Source: an uncultured Candidatus Bathyarchaeia archaeon (GTDB lineage Archaea; Thermoproteota; Bathyarchaeia; Bathyarchaeales; DTEX01). From it: a DNA stretch of 38,216 nt. The DNA is taken from NCBI GenBank assembly GCA_964580405.1, contig CAZOKM010000004.1, positions 1 to 38,216 of the forward strand, read 5' to 3'. The notes beneath the pieces are model-generated. The model worked only from the letters and a program-made list of their open reading frames with translations, had not been told where the DNA came from and ran no database searches. The first letter of the stretch is position 1; every line of letters begins with the position of its first letter. Shown here piece after piece: positions 3,169 to 12,692 of the stretch. A program made the translations under genes and the position numbers.

Positions 3169-4965
3169 CTAGAGGTTGTTTTTGAAGACCTCTTCGAGAA
3201 CCTCTTTGGGGTCAAACGTTTCCTCGGACCTCACCGAGGCCTCCTCGACGTAGAGCTGGGTCGCATACCTCAAAGCCTCGTCGCTCACTGGTATAAAATC
3301 CGTGTCTGAGCCGAAGTACTCCATAAGGGAAGCCGCGCCCGCGAATCTGAGCGCCTTGTCCTCGAGCCTCGCCGAGAACTTGACCACCTTCTTGGGAATC
3401 CGCTCTAGAATCGCTGCTCTAGCCCTTCCGAGGACATCGAAGACCTGAGGCGTAATCATGACGGGCTTGAACTTGATGCGGTCCTTCACGAGGGGGTGCT
3501 CCGTTTCTATGGCGTAGATCAGGGTCAGGTGGTCCCGTATTTTCTGGGCGTCCTTTTCTATATCGATGGCTCCAAGCGCGAGCTTCATCTGGCTCTTCGT
3601 CAGCTCGATGAACCTCTCCTTCGTCAGCCTGTGCAGGCGGCAAAGCATCCTGTCCTCGATAGCATTAAAGTTCGGGTCCTGAATCGTCACCTCGTAGCCC
3701 CTGTCGTGTATCTCCACGTTGTAGTTCACCGAAAAGAACGACGAGAACCTGTACGGTCCAACGACCTCAGCATGGGTCTCGTACTTTATCTCGCCCTGCT
3801 CCATCGCGATCTTCAACGGCTCAACCATGCCCTTGTACCTAAAGAAGTCGTTGAACTCGGGCACGATGAAGTTGTAGACCTTGCCACTGTAGGCCTGACC
3901 GATCCTGATGAAGCTCGCCGGAGTAATGCCGCCGCAGTACCTGTTCCTGCCCGGGATGCCGTGCGCCCCGATCTTGGCTCTTGGGCTCCCTAGAATCATG
4001 TCCCTCGTCGAGAAGCTCTTCCCGGTGCCAGGGTCGCCGAACAAGGCAAGGGACCAGCCTGTTCTTTTTCCCGTTCCGCCGTGCTCGTGGGCGATCTCGA
4101 TGTTCGCCAAGCCGTACTGCTGGGTGATGCTCAGCAGGCTGTCGAAGTAGAGGACTTGTCCGAAGAGGCTCTTCAGGTAACCCGACAGGTACTCGAGGTT
4201 GAACTCTTTACCGAACTTGATTGTGCGGTCAAGCCTGTGCCTCAGGACGTCCTCCAAGTACTCGTCGAACTCTCGGTCCATCTCATCCACCTTCCCCATT
4301 TCGTCGAGGAGGTAATCGGCAACCTTCGGTTCTTCCCCAGAGGCGGTCTTGGACGCGTTTTCTGCAAGATGCGTGACCGAGATTGCTAGCTTCTGAGGCT
4401 TTTTCCTCATCCCGAGCTCATATTCTACGATGGAAACCGTCTCGTCGAGAATTTGCCACTCTTGGTAGGTGTCGCCCTTGTACGAGGTGACGATGACCTT
4501 TGACCTCTCAAGGTCCTCGAGAGCTTCGCGAATCTCGTCCGCCTTGACCTGCGTCTTCAACTCCTCTAGACTCATGGGTCCGTGGCTTTCGACCAAAGCC
4601 TTAAGGATAGAAACTGCCAGCGAGCCGTAACGGGCTTTAGCTCTGCGGACGCCGTTCTCAACCGTCCTAGAGGCTGAGTCCGTTGAGATAAATCCGTCCT
4701 CATATGAATAGAACCTTCCTCTAAAGGCTGCCCAGCCCCGCGGTTTGAATTCAGTAAAAACTGTTCTTAGCGCATTGTCGTCCAGTTCTTGGGCAATCAT
4801 GAACGAGGCTTCTTCCTCGTTTCCGATTCTCCACCCGTTCGCCAGTTCCCCGAAGTACGGTATTTTGAGCCAGTTGCCGATGCTGTAAAGGTCAGCCCTC
4901 GAGAAAACTCTCTTCAGGAGCATGGCTTTTTCGATCAGTTTTTCGTTTTCCTCAGGGTCGGGCAA
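3169..4965 (-). CDS. Uncharacterised P-loop AAA+ ATPase, MCM/clade-7-like C-terminal module, N-terminal wHTH-like region
   Basis: Walker A LFGDPGTGKS, Walker B-like FIVPEFND, KIAMEQGEI, sensor-1-like SVNYN, R-finger-like IEDRML, sensor-2-like FSARLEDKALR. wHTH-like ILKALVESHGPMSLEEL..IREALEDLERSKVI. TTG start. Confidence 0.75.
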   Translation of the reverse strand: MPDPEENEKLIEKAMLLKRVFSRADLYSIGNWLKIPYFGELANGWRIGNEEEASFMIAQELDDNALRTVFTEFKPRGWAAFRGRFYSYEDGFISTDSASRTVENGVRRAKARYGSLAVSILKALVESHGPMSLEELKTQVKADEIREALEDLERSKVIVTSYKGDTYQEWQILDETVSIVEYELGMRKKPQKLAISVTHLAENASKTASGEEPKVADYLLDEMGKVDEMDREFDEYLEDVLRHRLDRTIKFGKEFNLEYLSGYLKSLFGQVLYFDSLLSITQQYGLANIEIAHEHGGTGKRTGWSLALFGDPGTGKSFSTRDMILGSPRAKIGAHGIPGRNRYCGGITPASFIRIGQAYSGKVYNFIVPEFNDFFRYKGMVEPLKIAMEQGEIKYETHAEVVGPYRFSSFFSVNYNVEIHDRGYEVTIQDPNFNAIEDRMLCRLHRLTKERFIELTKSQMKLALGAIDIEKDAQKIRDHLTLIYAIETEHPLVKDRIKFKPVMITPQVFDVLGRARAAILERIPKKVVKFSARLEDKALRFAGAASLMEYFGSDTDFIPVSDEALRYATQLYVEEASVRSEETFDPKEVLEEVFKNNL

Positions 4966-5121: not shown

Positions 5122-6759
5122 TTATTTTGTTGTTGCGACGCTTTGGATGCTTTCCTTTTCTTTTTGGTTCAGCCATCCTTCGGCTTCGAGCTCGGACAGC
5201 CCCATGGCGATCTGGCTCTGAAATTCTGGTCTTAAGAGGATGTTTGCTGTTTGCGCGGCTTTTGCCACCTGTTCTTTCAGGGCTATGTTCTTTGTGAGGT
5301 TTCTCTCCAAGTTGTCGAAGAAGGCTTTGTCTAGGTCCTTCGACCTCGGAGTCAGAAGGAGCTGTATTCGGGACTCCAAGCTGAACGAGAAGACGGCTTT
5401 CTGGATTTTCCTCACTATGCCCTTGTAGCTCGCTGCCATCACAGGGGGATAAACGTCTATCCTGGTTTTTTGCTGTTGTCTGTACTGCACGACGTAGAAT
5501 GGTATGCCAACGAGTGAGGGTTCGTCGGCTTTGAGCGGAATCGTTGTGTTCCTGAGGGTCTCCGCGTCTTTATCTTTTTGGGCGGTGAGGCTGTTGATTT
5601 GGGCTTCGATCTTCTGGGAGAGGTCTTGGGTCTTTTTCTGCTCATCCGTCTTCTTCAACATCTCGGCGTTCCTCGAACGTTCCAGAGCCTCAAGTTTCTC
5701 AGTCTCCTTCGCGAGTAGACTCTGGAATTTTGCTTCAATCTGCCCCAGCTGCTGTCTGCCGTTGGCGCGCGTTTCTTCTTGTAGGTTTGACATTCGGCGG
5801 AGCTCCGAATCCGATTGTTCGATTTTTTCCTTCACGAGAGAGATTCTGTTGTCGATTCGCGTCGTGCTCCTTTTTGGGTAACTATGCTGTTGGGTTCTTT
5901 TTTGGGCGAGAATCAGGTCGAGTGAGTGGCGTAATTCGCTGTTCTTTTTACGTAGTTTCCTTTCTTCGATGGCGAGTTTTTCCATGTCTTTTTTGATGAC
6001 TGCTTCTGCCCTTGCGACTTCTTTGATTCGATTCTTCTCAAGCGACTTGACGTTCTTATTGACTTCTTTTCGGACCTCGGATATTCTTTCCTCGTAGCTT
6101 CCCCAGATTTGGTCGAGCTCCACCGAGGCCTTCTCTTTGTGGCGGCGCGTCTCTTCCCTCAAGATTTTTGTCGCATACTGCAACGCGTCAACGTCAGTCT
6201 GAGCCCTAAGCCACTCGCGGCGCAGTCTTTCCGCGACATCATCCGACCTTGCTTTTTCGAAGACCTGCGGAACAAAGACAACGTTGGCTTCTGGCGACCC
6301 ATTTAAAATTTTATGTTCATTAATCAGGAGCGAAAGGGCTTCGAGGACTTGGGTGTCCGAAACCAAGGCGTCTAGTCCCACTTTTTCAGCCTGAAGGAAC
6401 TTCTCAAACGTGCGCTCGTGCTTCTGCAGGGTCTCCGCGAAGAGTTTGAACGACGTTTTACTCCTCTCAAGGTTCTCCGTGAACTCCTGCACCGCCGGTA
6501 TCTGGCTGTGAGCTGTGGTCGTCGATGTTAGGCCGAGTCCGTCGACGACGACGCATCTTCCGTTCCACGGCACCGCCCACAAGGGATAGCAGAGCTTCGA
6601 GATGCATTCGGTTTCCTCAGCGGAGCCTCTCAGGAGGGACTGTTTTTTTCTTTTCGCCTCGGTTAGGCACAGGATCGCTGCTTCTTCCATTTCCTTGGTG
6701 AAGGCTTTTTGCCTGTTTGGGTCTTCCTTGACGAATTGTGCGACGAACATAATCAGCAC
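5122..6759 (-). CDS. Hypothetical protein with long central coiled coil (545 aa)
   Basis: E/K/Q/R-rich heptad region at about aa 170-400, flanked by beta-rich segments (CYPLWAVPW; GIPFYVVQY). No Walker motifs. Confidence 0.8.
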   Translation of the reverse strand: MLIMFVAQFVKEDPNRQKAFTKEMEEAAILCLTEAKRKKQSLLRGSAEETECISKLCYPLWAVPWNGRCVVVDGLGLTSTTTAHSQIPAVQEFTENLERSKTSFKLFAETLQKHERTFEKFLQAEKVGLDALVSDTQVLEALSLLINEHKILNGSPEANVVFVPQVFEKARSDDVAERLRREWLRAQTDVDALQYATKILREETRRHKEKASVELDQIWGSYEERISEVRKEVNKNVKSLEKNRIKEVARAEAVIKKDMEKLAIEERKLRKKNSELRHSLDLILAQKRTQQHSYPKRSTTRIDNRISLVKEKIEQSDSELRRMSNLQEETRANGRQQLGQIEAKFQSLLAKETEKLEALERSRNAEMLKKTDEQKKTQDLSQKIEAQINSLTAQKDKDAETLRNTTIPLKADEPSLVGIPFYVVQYRQQQKTRIDVYPPVMAASYKGIVRKIQKAVFSFSLESRIQLLLTPRSKDLDKAFFDNLERNLTKNIALKEQVAKAAQTANILLRPEFQSQIAMGLSELEAEGWLNQKEKESIQSVATTK

Positions 6760-7691: not shown

Positions 7692-7982
7692 TTACTCTTT
7701 CTTTGGGGGCTCTGTTTCTGCAGTTTCCGCGGTTTCCTTGGCTTCTTCGGTCTCTATTTCCTTTTCGAGCTCCTCAATCGGTTTAGGAGGCGGCGTTGTC
7801 GCCATCGTCCAGCCTATCCATGCTCCGATTCCGAGTATGGCGAGTATGGCGATGAAGCCCGTCAGTTGAAGTACGAGGAGGCTCCATCCTGGGAGGATGT
7901 CGAAGACGAGGACTCCGTACAATACGATTCCCGCTAAACATACGACAAGCACAAGTGCGCCTATGGATTGGTCTTTGCTCAT
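7692..7982 (-). CDS. Conserved small two-TM membrane protein with acidic tail
   Basis: Two hydrophobic helices, then WIGWTMATTPPPKPIEE, a pattern I recognise from TACK small membrane proteins. TATA-like CTTATAAA about 40 bp upstream. Confidence 0.85.
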   Translation of the reverse strand: MSKDQSIGALVLVVCLAGIVLYGVLVFDILPGWSLLVLQLTGFIAILAILGIGAWIGWTMATTPPPKPIEELEKEIETEEAKETAETAETEPPKKE

Positions 7983-8038
7983 GCGTTATCTCACCGTGTT
8001 GATTGCATGATTAACCTCAGAAAGTTTATAAGGTTTAC

Positions 8039-8476
8039 GTTCTGGCCTGTTTTGTGTGACAATACCCTTTAGACCCGTCTAATTTGAGTGGCAAATTCTT
8101 TTTTGGTTTGAGTGGCAAAACGCGAAGACCCTATCTGATTTGAGTGGCAAATTTTTTTTGCGTTTGAGCGTCATTCATTACTAGCGAAGACCTGTCTGAT
8201 TTGCTGAGCAAGTTTTCTGTTGTTTTGGAGTGCAAATTTATGCAGGTTTTTCCGCTTTAAGGGGGACCGTGTGTAATCTCGTCCGATTGTCGGACCATCT
8301 CTCAGAGTCTGGTCTGATTTGATCAACATTAGATTTTTTTGTTTGAACAACATACGCTTAAGCTGAATAGACCAGTTTGTTTTGTTCAACAATAATTCTG
8401 CAATTTTGACTAACAAACCGCAGCCTAGGACCTGTCTGTTTTGCGGCGCAAAATTTCCGTCGTATTGGAGCGCAAA
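8039..8476. repeat. Degenerate direct-repeat array: six ~49-bp units plus one truncated unit
   Basis: Units start at 8071, 8126, 8188, 8306, 8369 and 8428, with a partial at 8039. Consensus RGACCNGTCTGW-TTTG-N5-CAAA-N11-TTTG-N5-CAAA. Box pairs at 8083/8107, 8139/8163, 8200/8224, 8318/8342, 8381/8405 and 8440/8464. Confidence 0.85.
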
Positions 8477-8511: not shown

Positions 8512-8790
8512 TTAGTCTTCGTGGAGGACTTCGAGTCTTTGGACTGAGGTGAGGTTTATGAAGACTTCGCTTCGGTCCTCGCGGCTTACGACCTGTGGTA
8601 TGGGCTGCGCGATGGTTGACCTGAGGACGGTTGCCTTGCCCTCTGAGAGCCAGAGTCCGGGCGGGTCTCTTGACACTGCGGCTAGGATTCCCTCGTACCC
8701 GTAGGATTGGTCTAGAACAACGTGGATTTTCCGCCCCATGTGGCGTTCAAGCATCAACAAAACTGAGGGCGGAGGCGCATTGCCCGACAT
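8512..8790 (-). CDS. Divergent Sm/LSm-fold protein
   Basis: Sm1-like LERHMGRKIHVVLDQSYGYEGILAAV...LWLSEG and Sm2-like SEVFINLTSVQRLEV. GGTGAAGG SD-like sequence upstream. Confidence 0.7.
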   Translation of the reverse strand: MSGNAPPPSVLLMLERHMGRKIHVVLDQSYGYEGILAAVSRDPPGLWLSEGKATVLRSTIAQPIPQVVSREDRSEVFINLTSVQRLEVLHED

Positions 8791-11384: not shown

Positions 11385-12554
11385 TTATATTCTGTCTATC
11401 CCTGTTCCTGAGCTGGAGGAAAGAGTAAACTTTCCATACGAGCCGTAGTTCACGTAGACACACCGCAACCTAATTTTTTTCCCCATTTCCAAATTTTCAG
11501 CAAGCGCTGCATGTTCCCGCCAAAGAATAACTTTGGCCCTTCCAGTCCCGTCGCCGATTTCGAAAGTGGCAAGCTTGACCTTCTCGTCCTTGGAAGTTGT
11601 CACTTCCCTAGTTTCGGGCTGGGTCACGACGTCTCCCTCAACCGTGACCTTCAAGCCGGGTCTGAGGTTCCGAACCTTGACAGAGTCTGTCGATAAATTC
11701 TCGTAGCCTACGGGCAGCTCCCTCAGAAGGGCAAAGCGGACGGACGAGTCCACGTGCAGCTCCACGCCTCCGGTGAGCGATTCCTTGATTTTCGCCCCGT
11801 AAACCTGCAGTAAACAGCCGCTCTTTACGTCGGTTGAATCCTCAACCTTCGAGCCCCAGAAAACAACCGTCACAATTCCCGTCTCGTCCTGCAACTCAAG
11901 TTTTCTCAGCGTCCCTTCCCTGCCGTCCTCACGGCTGAACGTGGAGGAAGGGTAGACCTCAACCACTCTGCCGATCACGTTCGCTCTCTTGGCGTCCTTT
12001 TTCAGCTCCCCGATTTTCCTGTGAAAATCGGTCAGAAGTGGCAATCCACCTTGGGCGTCATCGGACGAAGCGGCTTCGACGCTTCCTTTCGAGCCGATGC
12101 TCAACTCGAGCCTCCCGTTGTAGCCTGCGCGGACGTAGCCGTGCGTGAACTGGGCAACCCGTCCGAGTAGGTTCGTCGAATCGGCCAAGTCAGCCTTGTC
12201 CCCCCAAACAACGACCCTCAGCTCCCCCGTCTTGTCAGCAATGACAAATTGCTTCATCCTCACTTCTCTTTCGTCCTGACTAGGGAATTTCTGGAGAGGA
12301 CCAACATAGACTACGTGGCCCGTAATCGTGACGTCACCGAGGCCAGAAACCAAGTCCTTGATGGTAATCCCGTGTGCGGATGGGACTTTTGGCTGTTCGA
12401 CGCCGAGCTCCACCGCGACCGCCCGAGCCGCGCTTTCGTGCGTAAGGAAGCCCTTGGCCTCCTCAACCTTCGCCTCAATCATCCCTTGCAACTCCTCGCG
12501 CGTCTTGTCTGGGCGGGAACTGAGAATCTTCTGTACAATATCCTCAAACGGCAT
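11385..12554 (-). CDS. rpa: Replication protein A-like ssDNA-binding protein, three OB folds
   Basis: N-terminal helical domain (A..AVAVELGV), then three repeats of I.DL....V...G.V / D.TG.....W (ADKTGELRVVVWG, QDETGIVTVVFWG, GDGTGRAKVILWR). ATG 12554 preferred over 12596. Confidence 0.88.
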   Translation of the reverse strand: MPFEDIVQKILSSRPDKTREELQGMIEAKVEEAKGFLTHESAARAVAVELGVEQPKVPSAHGITIKDLVSGLGDVTITGHVVYVGPLQKFPSQDEREVRMKQFVIADKTGELRVVVWGDKADLADSTNLLGRVAQFTHGYVRAGYNGRLELSIGSKGSVEAASSDDAQGGLPLLTDFHRKIGELKKDAKRANVIGRVVEVYPSSTFSREDGREGTLRKLELQDETGIVTVVFWGSKVEDSTDVKSGCLLQVYGAKIKESLTGGVELHVDSSVRFALLRELPVGYENLSTDSVKVRNLRPGLKVTVEGDVVTQPETREVTTSKDEKVKLATFEIGDGTGRAKVILWREHAALAENLEMGKKIRLRCVYVNYGSYGKFTLSSSSGTGIDRI

Positions 12555-12692
12555 TGTCGGCACTTCGACCTTTTCAGAAAATTGGCGGAAGGGCATTAAA
12601 GCCTATCTGAAGCGAAACGAATTCCAGTCTTTGCACCTTGGCAGATTTGGTAATCTTACCAAGTACCTCAGACTCTACAAAATTTCATTCAT

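Follow-up and report, generated by a model that had tools for sequence, protein, structure and literature searches.

A genome-wide family of modular intergenic repeats with paired palindromic boxes in Bathyarchaeia, with a possible role as DNA-binding sites

The array of repeats at positions 8039-8476 of the window (the whole 38,216-nt stretch of Bathyarchaeia DNA analyzed here) is best read as part of a mosaic repeat family of the BOX/BIME kind whose function, as we infer it, is to provide binding sites on double-stranded DNA. We give roughly an even chance to the full form of this reading: modular intergenic repeats confined to one lineage but spread through the genome, with the window array as their largest local copy, would serve as a protein-binding platform at the DNA level. 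The family is apparently undescribed, and full-text searching of the literature found no account of comparable elements in Bathyarchaeia or other archaea. The overall interpretation proposed in the initial annotation of this DNA was partly supported.

Organization of the array

Read directly from the letters, 8039-8476 contains six units, each made of a head followed by two boxes. Heads start at 8071, 8126, 8188, 8306, 8369 and 8428 (spacings of 55, 62, 118, 63 and 59 bp) and box a starts at 8083, 8139, 8200, 8318, 8381 and 8440, with box b exactly 24 bp after box a in 6/6 units; the six units, head spacings, 24-bp offset and N5 cores described in the initial annotation were thereby confirmed. 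Its description of all boxes as TTTG-N5-CAAA held exactly for 6 of the 12 (1a, 1b, 2a, 3b, 5b and 6a), the remaining six being one or two letters off at one end, and a seventh, lone box had to be added at 8051. When the box-pair pattern was searched in the 38-kb window allowing up to one mismatch, 10 matches were obtained, all within 8083-8476, against 0.24 expected (sd 0.53; 0/100 shuffles reached 10); 6 were on the plus strand and 4 on the minus strand, the latter being explained by the palindromic nature of the boxes. The window array was absent from the TRF output.

All parts of the array lie on the plus strand. The lone box TTTGTGTGACAAT (family D2; 8051-8063) is a half unit of the type-3 kind placed 32 bp before box 1a, and a similar lone box is present at the orthologous loci of two relatives, G002 and G004. 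Unit 1 (8071-8119; head 8071-8082, box a 8083-8095, box b 8107-8119), with cores AGTGG/AGTGG, and unit 2 (8126-8175; 13-nt head 8126-8138, box a 8139-8151, box b 8163-8175) are both of type 4, forming one of only three same-type neighbor pairs genome-wide. Unit 3 (8188-8236; head 8188-8199, box a 8200-8212, box b 8224-8236) is a type-1 variant, type 1 being the one with which arrays usually end. The slot that follows (8237-8305) is filled by a decayed copy of a module termed P, described below; it displays a G run (8261-8265), a mutated TATATATA position (8266-8275) and, at 8281-8295, the palindrome GTCCGA-TTG-TCGGAC, the hairpin noticed earlier in this odd slot. Unit 4 (8306-8354; head 8306-8317, box a 8318-8330, box b 8342-8354) is of type 2, the commonest array-opening type, while the slot of unit 5 (8369-8417; head 8369-8380, box a 8381-8393, box b 8405-8417) holds type 6 here, type 5 in G002 and type 3 in G004. 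Unit 6 (8428-8476; head 8428-8439, box a 8440-8452, box b 8464-8476) is of type 1 and terminal; the array at this locus ends with a type-1 unit in G002 and G004 too.

Two minus-strand genes flank the array: one for a predicted small membrane protein of 96 aa (7692-7982) and one for a conserved 92-aa protein without Pfam match (8512-8790), whose 3' end abuts the array and which was used as the anchor for finding orthologous loci. Since only repeat-made frames (81 and 56 aa) are found between these two ORFs, the array is non-coding as judged from its context, in line with the initial annotation. The left neighbor is a different gene in every relative examined, thus the window array sits at a synteny break. 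Breaks of synteny between the genome under study (G000) and G002 at arrays may be real rearrangements or short-read mis-joins at repeats, and they carry no weight in the readings below.

A genome-wide family of seven unit types

The proposal of the initial annotation that its units represent variants within one family of repeated elements proved right. A unit HMM seeded from the six window units and searched against their own 1.85-Mb genome gave 206 matches at E<1, 164 of them at E<1e-3. Assembled from same-strand matches, the 206 units group into 70 arrays of 1-7 matches each, the window array being the largest; its seven matches and the other arrays that were printed all read on one strand. 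At about 60 bp per unit the family occupies roughly 0.7% of the genome.

Each unit consists of a 12-nt head ending in GTCTGA or GTCTGT and, directly after it, a 37-bp core in which two 13-bp palindromic boxes of similar sequence (TTTGnn-N-nnCAAA) are set at a distance of exactly 24 bp. Seven sequence types of unit were recognized genome-wide, with 41, 34, 31, 31, 21, 19 and 14 members (15 units were untyped), and the unit-specific cores that had been pointed out in the window are these seven types.

The order of types was analyzed in the 55 arrays with at least two units. Type 2 comes first in 17 of the 55 (8.9 expected; 5/5000 shuffles reach 17), type 1 comes last in 25 (10.8 expected; 0/5000 shuffles), and neighbors of the same type were found only 3 times when 17.8 were expected (0/5000 shuffles). 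This polarity was found again in a sample of G002 arrays, with type 2 first in 40/74 and type 1 or 3 last in 51/74, and in a hand-picked sample from G004, with 12/20 for each of these positions. The module order is partial, the best linear order fitting 228 of 324 ordered pairs (null mean 197.6) and being violated by 30% of them. A single master array decaying by deletion was rejected as a sufficient account, since only 27 of 57 arrays fit the best order.

The four classes of array orientation relative to neighboring genes are nearly equal in size (17, 15, 14 and 13), indicating that arrays are independent of those genes. A crude ORF call is overlapped by more than 30 nt in 16/70 arrays, an overlap inspected for the window array only. 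Regarding tRNAs, 4/71 arrays lie within 600 bp of one of the 30 tRNAs, a weak signal.

Repeated palindromic boxes at fixed spacing, with an RPA-like gene (11385-12596) and an Alba gene within 4 kb of the array, are what might be seen at a locus-specific replication or partition site, either as iterons, as origin recognition boxes or as a centromere. We regard this as very improbable: there are about 70 such arrays per genome, no such boxes surround the single Orc1/Cdc6 gene (the only Cdc6_C match, C20:10360-11544), and the window array shows no AT-rich unwinding stretch flanked by inverted boxes. Because it is one of about 70, the window array does not amount to a local centromere, origin or set of iterons, nor to a record confined to its own locus. 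The alternatives listed in the initial annotation, a protein-loading or recombination-site array, come close to the reading favored here.

Distribution and turnover among relatives

Among the 7 genomes of the genus that were compared, units are present in only three (G000, G002 and G004), G001, G003, G005 and G006 being unit-free; viral contigs gave 0 matches to the type-1 pattern. In related species the flanks and the end units are retained and whole units are gained, lost or replaced exactly at the ...TCTGA|TTTG junction. This was seen at the window locus against both G002 and G004, in agreement with the earlier proposal that the locus changes by whole-unit events, as well as in pairs of orthologous arrays, 8 of them shared with G002 and 7 with relatives from metagenomes; an array reading 4-P-1, for example, has 4-P-7-1 as its counterpart, a difference of exactly one unit. 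In the case of near-identical strains, 19 alignments with at least 99.4% identity cross 15 arrays, the window array not among them, with 0 gaps inside. An assembly artefact is an unlikely source of the window array, because its orthologous locus bears related arrays in two independently assembled genomes and because independent metagenome contigs traverse those 15 other arrays without a gap.

Constraint on the units was gauged from 21 retained orthologous units, conditioned on at least 70% identity. Box a and the spacer are each 84% identical, box b reaches 89% and the head 77%, as against 73% in the 150-bp flanks. The one empty-site comparison (G002 L091 vs C72) has ragged edges, which makes the insertion boundary unreadable.

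Mobile-element readings

The initial annotation favored a stack of same-orientation IS6-like ends that one element after another had left behind, or else an array acting as a transposase decoy. Transposon ends are commonly designed as a terminal motif with repeated boxes behind it, and head plus box a resembles the pattern GGnnCTGT...GCAAA that the initial annotation named for IS6-family ends; this is a resemblance only. Copies adjoining mobile-element genes, whose absence had been named beforehand as the refutation of this model, were not found. G000 has no IS6 (PF13610), Y1 (PF01797), TnpB (PF07282) or rve (PF00665) match, the search having covered the genus for the first three and G000 for rve. 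The only PF13610 (DDE_Tnp_IS240) gene in the 7 genomes of the genus belongs to G002 and has 0 units in the 3.4 kb around it, and Y1, with 0 matches in G000, G002 and G004, occurs only in G005, itself unit-free. Other enzyme families were represented in G000 by single matches: DDE_Tnp_1 (PF01609) on C90, where no unit was detected; a resolvase domain (PF00239) on the 2.2-kb contig C185, again with no unit detected, and with none in G002 or G004; and a tyrosine recombinase (PF00589) on C76, 5 kb from an array.

Neither does the arrangement of the arrays suit transposon ends. No two of the 70 arrays face heads outward around a gene, and in the 5 contigs with arrays on both strands every neighboring opposite pair is minus-then-plus, with heads inward, 7-21 kb apart. 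Flanking direct repeats of 4, 5, 6, 7 and 8 nt were found in 8, 4, 0, 0 and 0 of 61 arrays, with mismatched partners used as control giving 15.3, 5.4, 1.4, 0.5 and 0.1, and comparison of the first 20 nt with the reverse-complemented array end gave a mean of 6.15 matches (6.20 for shuffled partners); hence neither target duplications nor terminal inverted repeats exceed control. There are, moreover, about 200 units and no element bodies, and we find the stack of IS6-like ends, or the decoy array, scarcely credible.

A rather unlikely reading, though one with more in its favor, is that of miniature mobile units, namely a non-autonomous element of ~60 bp running from TTTG to TCTGA and inserted one-way just 3' of TCTGA by an unrecognized enzyme. 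Each insertion would recreate the target, so that arrays would become growing insertion hotspots. Indels between relatives indeed comprise entire units with ...TCTGA|TTTG as their boundary, conserved neighbors can come to enclose a unit of another type (C14 vs L229), orientation within arrays is strictly single, and unit types have species-specific spacer versions, which fits ongoing copying. The direct order of the two similar boxes is also reminiscent of the paired sub-terminal structures in single-strand transposons; a possible likeness of the head to serine-recombinase binding motifs is given no weight. However, the absence of Y1, TnpB, IS6 and rve from G000, and of Y1 from G002 and G004, leaves the process without a recognized enzyme, the resolvase domain being confined to G000 and to its short contig devoid of detected units. 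In the 13-bp boxes the palindrome arms do not exceed 6 bp and enclose 1-5 nt, which would make hairpins weaker than those that such enzymes use, and the folds are ordinary. Furthermore, no unit-level change was seen in 15 arrays at 99.4-100% identity, first units bear a full head and not a bare target, the sole empty-site comparison has the ragged edges mentioned above, and on the long contigs of G004 the strands are mixed, with no replication-linked bias.

Protein binding or transcription

If the arrays are platforms on double-stranded DNA, each unit would provide two palindromic sites in a fixed geometry, to be occupied by a dimeric DNA-binding protein or a few paralogues, and the array would thus be a combinatorial protein-binding platform. 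The probable cause of turnover is recombination or gene conversion between arrays at different places in the genome, by way of the heads and units that they have in common, with adjacent identical units probably lost as unstable direct repeats. It counts against this account that homologous import of a unit of another type would rest on only ~16 bp of shared junction or on the neighboring units, and that seven specificities would need several proteins.

The co-variation within box a, which is palindromic beyond its outer TTTG/CAAA, points to recognition as double-stranded DNA and not to a structured RNA. Positions 5 and 9 form a Watson-Crick pair in 118/182 units (60 expected) and positions 6 and 8 in 84/182 (43 expected); since the latter pair encloses a single base, a hairpin is impossible there. 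Over the six pairs of box a, G-T combinations (31) are not in excess over A-C (37). Array folding energies are ordinary, with mean z of -0.35 for the sense and -0.50 for the antisense strand in 35 arrays. The window has no Rfam match at gathering level and no tRNA; at E up to 10 the best Rfam hits reached 14.7-18.5 bits against gathering scores of 50-140, a chance-level result. Pairing of box a with box b in one long hairpin, looked at by eye, was discarded because the inner positions of one box do not co-vary with those of the other and folds are ordinary.

Several observations do not sit well with a binding platform. None of the gene families next to arrays is enriched, symmetric protein sites need neither single-strand orientation nor a G+T-rich sense strand, the spacer is conserved as much as the boxes, and the palindrome is less perfect in box b than in box a. 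With respect to possible binders, a search for paralogues brought up an 11-member Lrp/RAM family; a small winged-helix family of five members has 2 of them beside arrays, which could be chance.

The promoter-like P module, which points into the units, and the T runs in many G000 spacers also speak against a binding platform, as they suit transcription. P is composed of a G run, TATATATA and a palindrome and recurs in some arrays; it looks like a real archaeal TATA promoter. According to a reading that we hold as tentative and improbable on balance, arrays would be transcribed, from P promoters or by read-through, into multi-unit precursors giving RNAs of about 50-65 nt in seven classes, weakly structured and U-rich, which would be cut at the GUCUGA|UUUG junction or terminated at U runs. 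This is consistent with the units of one array being all on one strand and with the orientation of arrays, independent of neighbor genes like that of free-standing RNA genes. The G run and TATATATA of P resemble TATA-type hexamers enriched 25-60 nt upstream of G000 genes; P is always directed into units, is kept in 5/7 genomes of the genus (0 control matches), and in G001 has behind it about 45 conserved nt ending in a T run. The T runs of G000 spacers are 5-8 long.

On the other hand, only 12 P modules are available in G000 for about 70 arrays, and the window copy has lost its TATA. Fold energies are no better than those of shuffles, there is no G-U signature, the co-variation at pair 6-8 cannot reflect a hairpin, and units have neither an Rfam family match nor a C box. 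T runs are largely absent from the G004 versions of the units. With T runs in each unit, an archaeal polymerase would terminate too early to yield a multi-unit precursor.

A broader possibility, to which we also attach a low probability, is an as yet unknown archaeal system that handles 60-bp modules as cassettes, either by site-specific exchange at GTCTGA|TTTG or as clusters of seven classes of ~60-nt RNAs. It would call for an exchange enzyme outside the recognized transposase and recombinase families, or for RNAs made from P promoters and cut at the junction; if it were true, the ordered arrays with one unit of each type would be functional and not a by-product of repeat instability. Protein binding at the DNA level is nevertheless the reading that we prefer.

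Implications

Modular mosaic repeats such as BOX and BIME have been described from bacteria; the present family is from Bathyarchaeia. Its grammar is rule-like, with seven types, polarity and an almost complete absence of identical neighbors, and whole units turn over with no recognizable mobilizing enzyme. Boxes serving as binding sites would point to a regulator or chromatin protein with about 400 sites per genome; if the units are RNA genes or cassettes, they would represent a new system. The repeats also break up MAG assemblies of this uncultured lineage, as 8/71 module groups (arrays plus lone P modules) are no more than 150 bp away from the end of a contig. Unit DNA of the seven types also offers a defined sequence handle in a group without genetic tools.

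Comparison with known repeat systems

The likeness to IS6-family ends put forward in the initial annotation lies in a GG..CTG head followed by a ...GCAAA motif, but the present arrays lack a cognate transposase, inverted partner ends and target duplication. With MITEs they share being short, non-coding, multi-copy, intergenic and limited to close relatives; unlike MITEs, they have no terminal inverted repeats, target-site duplications or parent IS, and they are modular and shuffled inside. Arrays on one strand with a ~60-bp period, whole-unit turnover and sometimes a leader-like promoter module are reminiscent of CRISPR, although unique spacers between copies of an invariant repeat are lacking: what varies falls into seven recurring classes spread over ~70 loci, and TRF reported no CRISPR-type tandem array in the whole G000 genome. 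In comparison with archaeal C/D-box sRNAs, CUGA is present in most heads, but no C-box motif (RUGAUGA) is found in units.

The REP/BIME elements of Enterobacteria and Pseudomonas are, like the present arrays, high-copy extragenic palindromic motifs in lineage-specific mosaic clusters. Features given for the bacterial elements in PMC2817692 include known protein binding and lineage specificity, as well as longer imperfect stem-loop palindromes, alternating orientation in BIMEs and an accompanying Y1 (RAYT) gene. The present units differ in lying on one strand, in having arms of at most 6 bp and ordinary fold z, and in the lack of Y1 in unit-bearing genomes.

In the case of BOX elements, composite repeats of the form boxA-boxB(n)-boxC, the account in PMC3049150 includes terminal inverted repeats, target duplications, predicted RNA stem-loops and tandem runs of the same boxB, whereas our arrays show no inverted ends or duplications above control, no fold signal and avoidance of same-type neighbors. 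Each module described here is, in addition, a pair of palindromic boxes at 24 bp in an archaeal host, with no sequence relation to BOX. Nevertheless, the BOX elements of Streptococcus pneumoniae and S. suis, the latter with seven sub-sequences in particular permutations as stated in the same source (PMC3049150), and the present arrays are alike in being interspersed intergenic modules of about 45-60 nt. Both are composites of different modules, with one module type characteristic of the 5' end, another of the 3' end (the order being only partial here) and variable internal modules, and in both the number of modules changes, between strains in BOX and between species in the arrays of Bathyarchaeia.

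The repeat array at 8039-8476

Direct reading of the sequence bore out the six-unit bipartite array that the initial annotation had placed at 8039-8476. Each unit comprises a head of 12 nt (13 nt in the second unit) ending in GTCTGA or GTCTGT and a 37-bp core with two 13-bp palindromic boxes, a and b. The heads start at 8071, 8126, 8188, 8306, 8369 and 8428 and the boxes a, directly 3' of them, at 8083, 8139, 8200, 8318, 8381 and 8440, all on the plus strand; as first described, the start-to-start distance from box a to box b is exactly 24 bp in every one of the six units. A seventh box, at 8051-8063, stands alone. The box consensus proposed earlier, TTTG-N5-CAAA, is exact in 6 of the 12 boxes, the others differing at one or two end letters. 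When up to one mismatch was allowed, the two-box pattern had 10 matches in the window, every one within the array (0.24 expected), a number reached in 0 of 100 shuffles; searches of the window for Rfam families and tRNAs gave no match of either kind.

The array is flanked by a 96-aa membrane-protein ORF (7692-7982) and a conserved 92-aa ORF (8512-8790), both on the minus strand; the window makes up the entire contig C4 of a 1.85-Mb genome of 192 contigs. No Pfam family matches the 92-aa protein at E up to 0.01, yet it is kept at 32 loci with 62-96% identity, all but one from Bathyarchaeia/Bathyarchaeota MAGs; outside this genus its gene has a close downstream neighbour and a short intergenic gap. 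Two other minus-strand ORFs, at 5122-6759 (545 aa, lysine/glutamate-rich, coiled-coil-like by eye) and 3169-4965 (598 aa), show no Pfam family above threshold, the sole match of the latter being a sub-threshold FokI_D3.

A genome-wide family of units

A position matrix was built from the six window units, and an HMM from its 137 best genome matches; the latter detected 206 units in the genome at E<1 and 164 at E<1e-3. Same-strand matches within 200 bp of each other were grouped, giving 70 arrays with 1-7 HMM matches each (one match in 10 arrays, two in 18, three in 19, four in 14, five in 8 and seven in one), the largest being that of the window. The repeats are real and form a wider family than the initial annotation supposed, with a function that is so far putative.

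Arrays are located in intergenic space; crude gene calls gave an overlap of more than 30 nt with a called ORF in 16 of the 70, the one case inspected, that of the window, being a frame made of the repeats themselves. The four classes of orientation relative to neighbouring genes hold 17, 15, 14 and 13 arrays, the remaining 11 reaching a contig end. Array direction is therefore independent of that of the neighbouring genes, which speaks against arrays serving those genes as promoters or terminators.

For 8 of 71 module groups a contig end is no more than 150 bp away (C41, C93, C100, C113, C134, C146, C181 and C188); the repeats therefore probably fragment the assembly, and real copies probably outnumber those counted. 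Several arrays of the congeneric genome G002 have flanks mapping to two different contigs of ours, with an array on each, reflecting either real rearrangements or mis-joins. Two genes for winged-helix-like proteins have arrays nearby, at distances of 115 and 147 bp. They belong to a family of five, 84-110 aa in length (C5:14351-14638, C69:10-342 and three paralogues), and their proximity to arrays may be accidental, since ~7% of genes flank arrays.

Unit types and their order

The 37-bp cores cluster into seven types with 41, 34, 31, 31, 21, 19 and 14 members, 15 being untyped; cores initially called unit-specific do differ between units but are not unique, belonging to types found family-wide. 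Within each type the two boxes of a unit are near-copies of each other, which explains the co-variation of N5 cores inside a unit seen from the start.

Arrays behave as ordered sets. Among the 55 arrays of two or more units, type 2 stands first in 17 (8.9 expected; as extreme in 5 of 5000 shuffles) and type 1 last in 25 (10.8 expected; 0 of 5000), while identical types are adjacent 3 times (17.8 expected; 0 of 5000), the window's 4-4 pair being one of these exceptions; a type is used twice in only 7 arrays. The best linear order of types fits 228 of 324 ordered pairs (null mean 197.6, maximum 212 in 30 shuffles), with full agreement in only 27 of 57 arrays; because the order is only partial, decay of a single master element by deletion is insufficient. 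Arrays ending in type 3 carry downstream a conserved tail of ~45 nt (e.g. at C80:4530-4580, C14:20150-20200 and C30:4770-4820) with a small AAAACA...TGTTTT inverted repeat, resembling a decayed type-1 unit.

The P module

A second, promoter-like module, P, combines a G run, TATATATA and a GGTCnG-N5-CnGACC-type palindrome; it recurs within arrays, on the array strand in every case. Its pattern has 12 matches in our genome and, among related genomes of the genus, 20 in G001, 16 in G005, 8 in G002, 5 in G003 and 0 in G004 and G006; reversed-pattern controls gave 0 in all genomes searched. The slot of the window array reported as holding different sequence is indeed non-unit and hairpin-bearing, with GTCCGA-TTG-TCGGAC at 8281-8295 as reported; alignment to the orthologous G002 copy and others now identifies 8237-8305 as a decayed P (P') with its TATA positions mutated and its palindrome retained, a form shared by a sister copy on contig C2. 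Genes of our genome show an enrichment of TATA-like hexamers at 25-60 nt upstream, which makes P plausible as a putative promoter.

In G001 and G005 P is present and units are absent. In 19 G001 copies (L046-L064; see also L011 and L013), P commonly precedes ~45 conserved nt that close with a T run; a second TATA-like motif comes next, and after it about three TGTGGAA repeats ~10-11 nt apart. This element looks like a sister repeat family with P as the only common part. At C9:7540-8390 of our genome, a type-4-like unit and P precede a 230-aa ORF (7696-8388) by ~70-100 bp; the orthologous G002 site (L093) lacks this ORF and has a 2-6-1 array in place.

Distribution and turnover of arrays

Of 31 related genomes searched by BLAST with the window array, 3 had matches, namely our own, G002 and G004, which belong to a single genus. 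With up to one mismatch, the two-box pattern matched 230 times in G002, 96 in G004, 3 in G001, 1 in G005 and 0 in G003 (controls 0-1). Across one genome for each of ~185,000 species, the type-1 pattern matched 19 stretches, all in the G002 record, and the generic unit pattern at least 90; among the generic matches listed, each of the 28 stretches matched at least twice comes from the G002 or G004 record, and ~29, each a single match, are from unrelated organisms. Viral contigs gave 0 matches to the type-1 pattern; metagenome contigs held 58 stretches with 205 units, many 99.4-100% identical to our genome.

The window locus was compared across genomes by anchoring on the 92-aa gene. Listed from the far side towards the gene, its modules are lone box, 4, 4, 1, P', 2, 6, 1 in our genome; 2, 7, lone box, P, 2, 5, 1 in G002; and lone box, 2, 3, decayed 1 in G004. 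G001 and G005 have only their own P-type element, and G003 and more distant relatives nothing comparable. A gene-proximal 2-x-1 with a differing middle type is common to the three species, and the distal part and the far-side gene vary among them. The same turnover was seen at eight further G002 orthologous pairs and seven pairs with metagenome relatives (76-92% flank identity), in which flanks and end units are retained and internal units are gained, lost or replaced whole; such changes are bounded by ...TCTGA/TTTG, the cleanest being 4-P-1 versus 4-P-7-1. In 21 retained orthologous units (conditioned on at least 70% identity), box a and spacer are each 84% identical between orthologues, box b 89% and the head 77%, all above the 73% of their 150-bp flanks.

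No strain-level unit change was found in 19 alignments (at least 99.4% identity; 0 internal gaps, 0-6 mismatches) spanning 15 arrays, that of the window not among them; this gap-free spanning by near-identical contigs speaks against an assembly artefact. The orthologue of array C20:3407-3742 in metagenome contig L236, whose flanks are 87-90% identical, carries an insert of ~600 bp, which splits P between TATA and palindrome and bears an opposite-strand 145-aa ORF.

Possible nature of the units

The earlier proposal of a stack of IS6-like transposon ends was rejected. Neither IS6 nor Y1, TnpB or rve had a match in the genome, which has one gene each of the DDE_Tnp_1, resolvase-domain and tyrosine-recombinase kinds, none of them next to an array. 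No units lie near the IS6-like gene of G002, our genome has no head-outward array pairs, and target duplications and inverted ends at arrays are not above controls. Transposition of single units by an enzyme of no recognised kind seems to us improbable. The resolvase-domain gene (C185:1033-1479, minus strand), the only one in the genus sample, has a frame of 499 aa, and its contig is 2.2 kb long; it may belong to a mobile element or have strayed in through binning. REP/BIME elements were rejected, there being no Y1 gene in any unit-bearing genome, a single unit orientation and no stable stems. So were a replication origin, given ~70 loci and no similar array beside the sole Cdc6_C gene, and a replication-oriented signal, strands being mixed along a 1-Mb contig of G004.

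The units show a fixed head/box a/box b geometry and constraint on their cores. The 13-bp palindrome of box a reaches further in than the outer four base pairs: complementary bases stand at pair 5-9 in 118 of 182 units (60 expected) and at pair 6-8 in 84 (43 expected). The inner pairs differ by type; in type 1, pair 6-8 is G-C (21), A-T (9), T-A (2) or G-T (3). Since pair 6-8 encloses one base it cannot be a hairpin pair, and G-T showed no excess over A-C across the six box-a pairs (31 vs 37). The P modules point toward transcription, as would suit arrays that are small-RNA clusters, a reading we hold to be rather unlikely given pair 6-8 and ordinary fold energies over 35 arrays (mean z = -0.35 sense, -0.50 antisense), by which a structured RNA was also rejected.

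Box palindromy is of the kind read by dimeric DNA-binding proteins, and the unit is thus taken as a pair of such sites. We give about an even chance to the reading in which each unit would hold two predicted dimeric-protein sites 24 bp apart and the array would be a platform of several binding specificities; units would turn over by recombination or gene conversion among arrays, and adjacent identical units would be lost as unstable direct repeats. Counting against this platform, its partner protein is hypothetical, symmetric sites leave the single-strandedness of arrays and their G+T-rich sense strand unexplained, spacers are as conserved as boxes, and P modules suggest transcription.

Comparison with known systems

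Full-text searches of open-access papers and preprints gave no account of comparable elements in Bathyarchaeia or other archaea. Among known systems, the modular BOX elements of streptococci come closest, followed by BIME mosaics (as treated in PMC2817692). BOX elements, in the portion of PMC3049150 consulted, have a composite build, polar end modules and variable internal modules, with seven sub-sequences in S. suis; the Bathyarchaeia family resembles them in its composite build, polar ends and variable interior, and its seven types may be set beside those seven sub-sequences. Unlike these nearest kinds, it lacks inverted ends, target duplications and RNA stems, avoids identical neighbours, builds each module of two palindromes and resides in an archaeal host.
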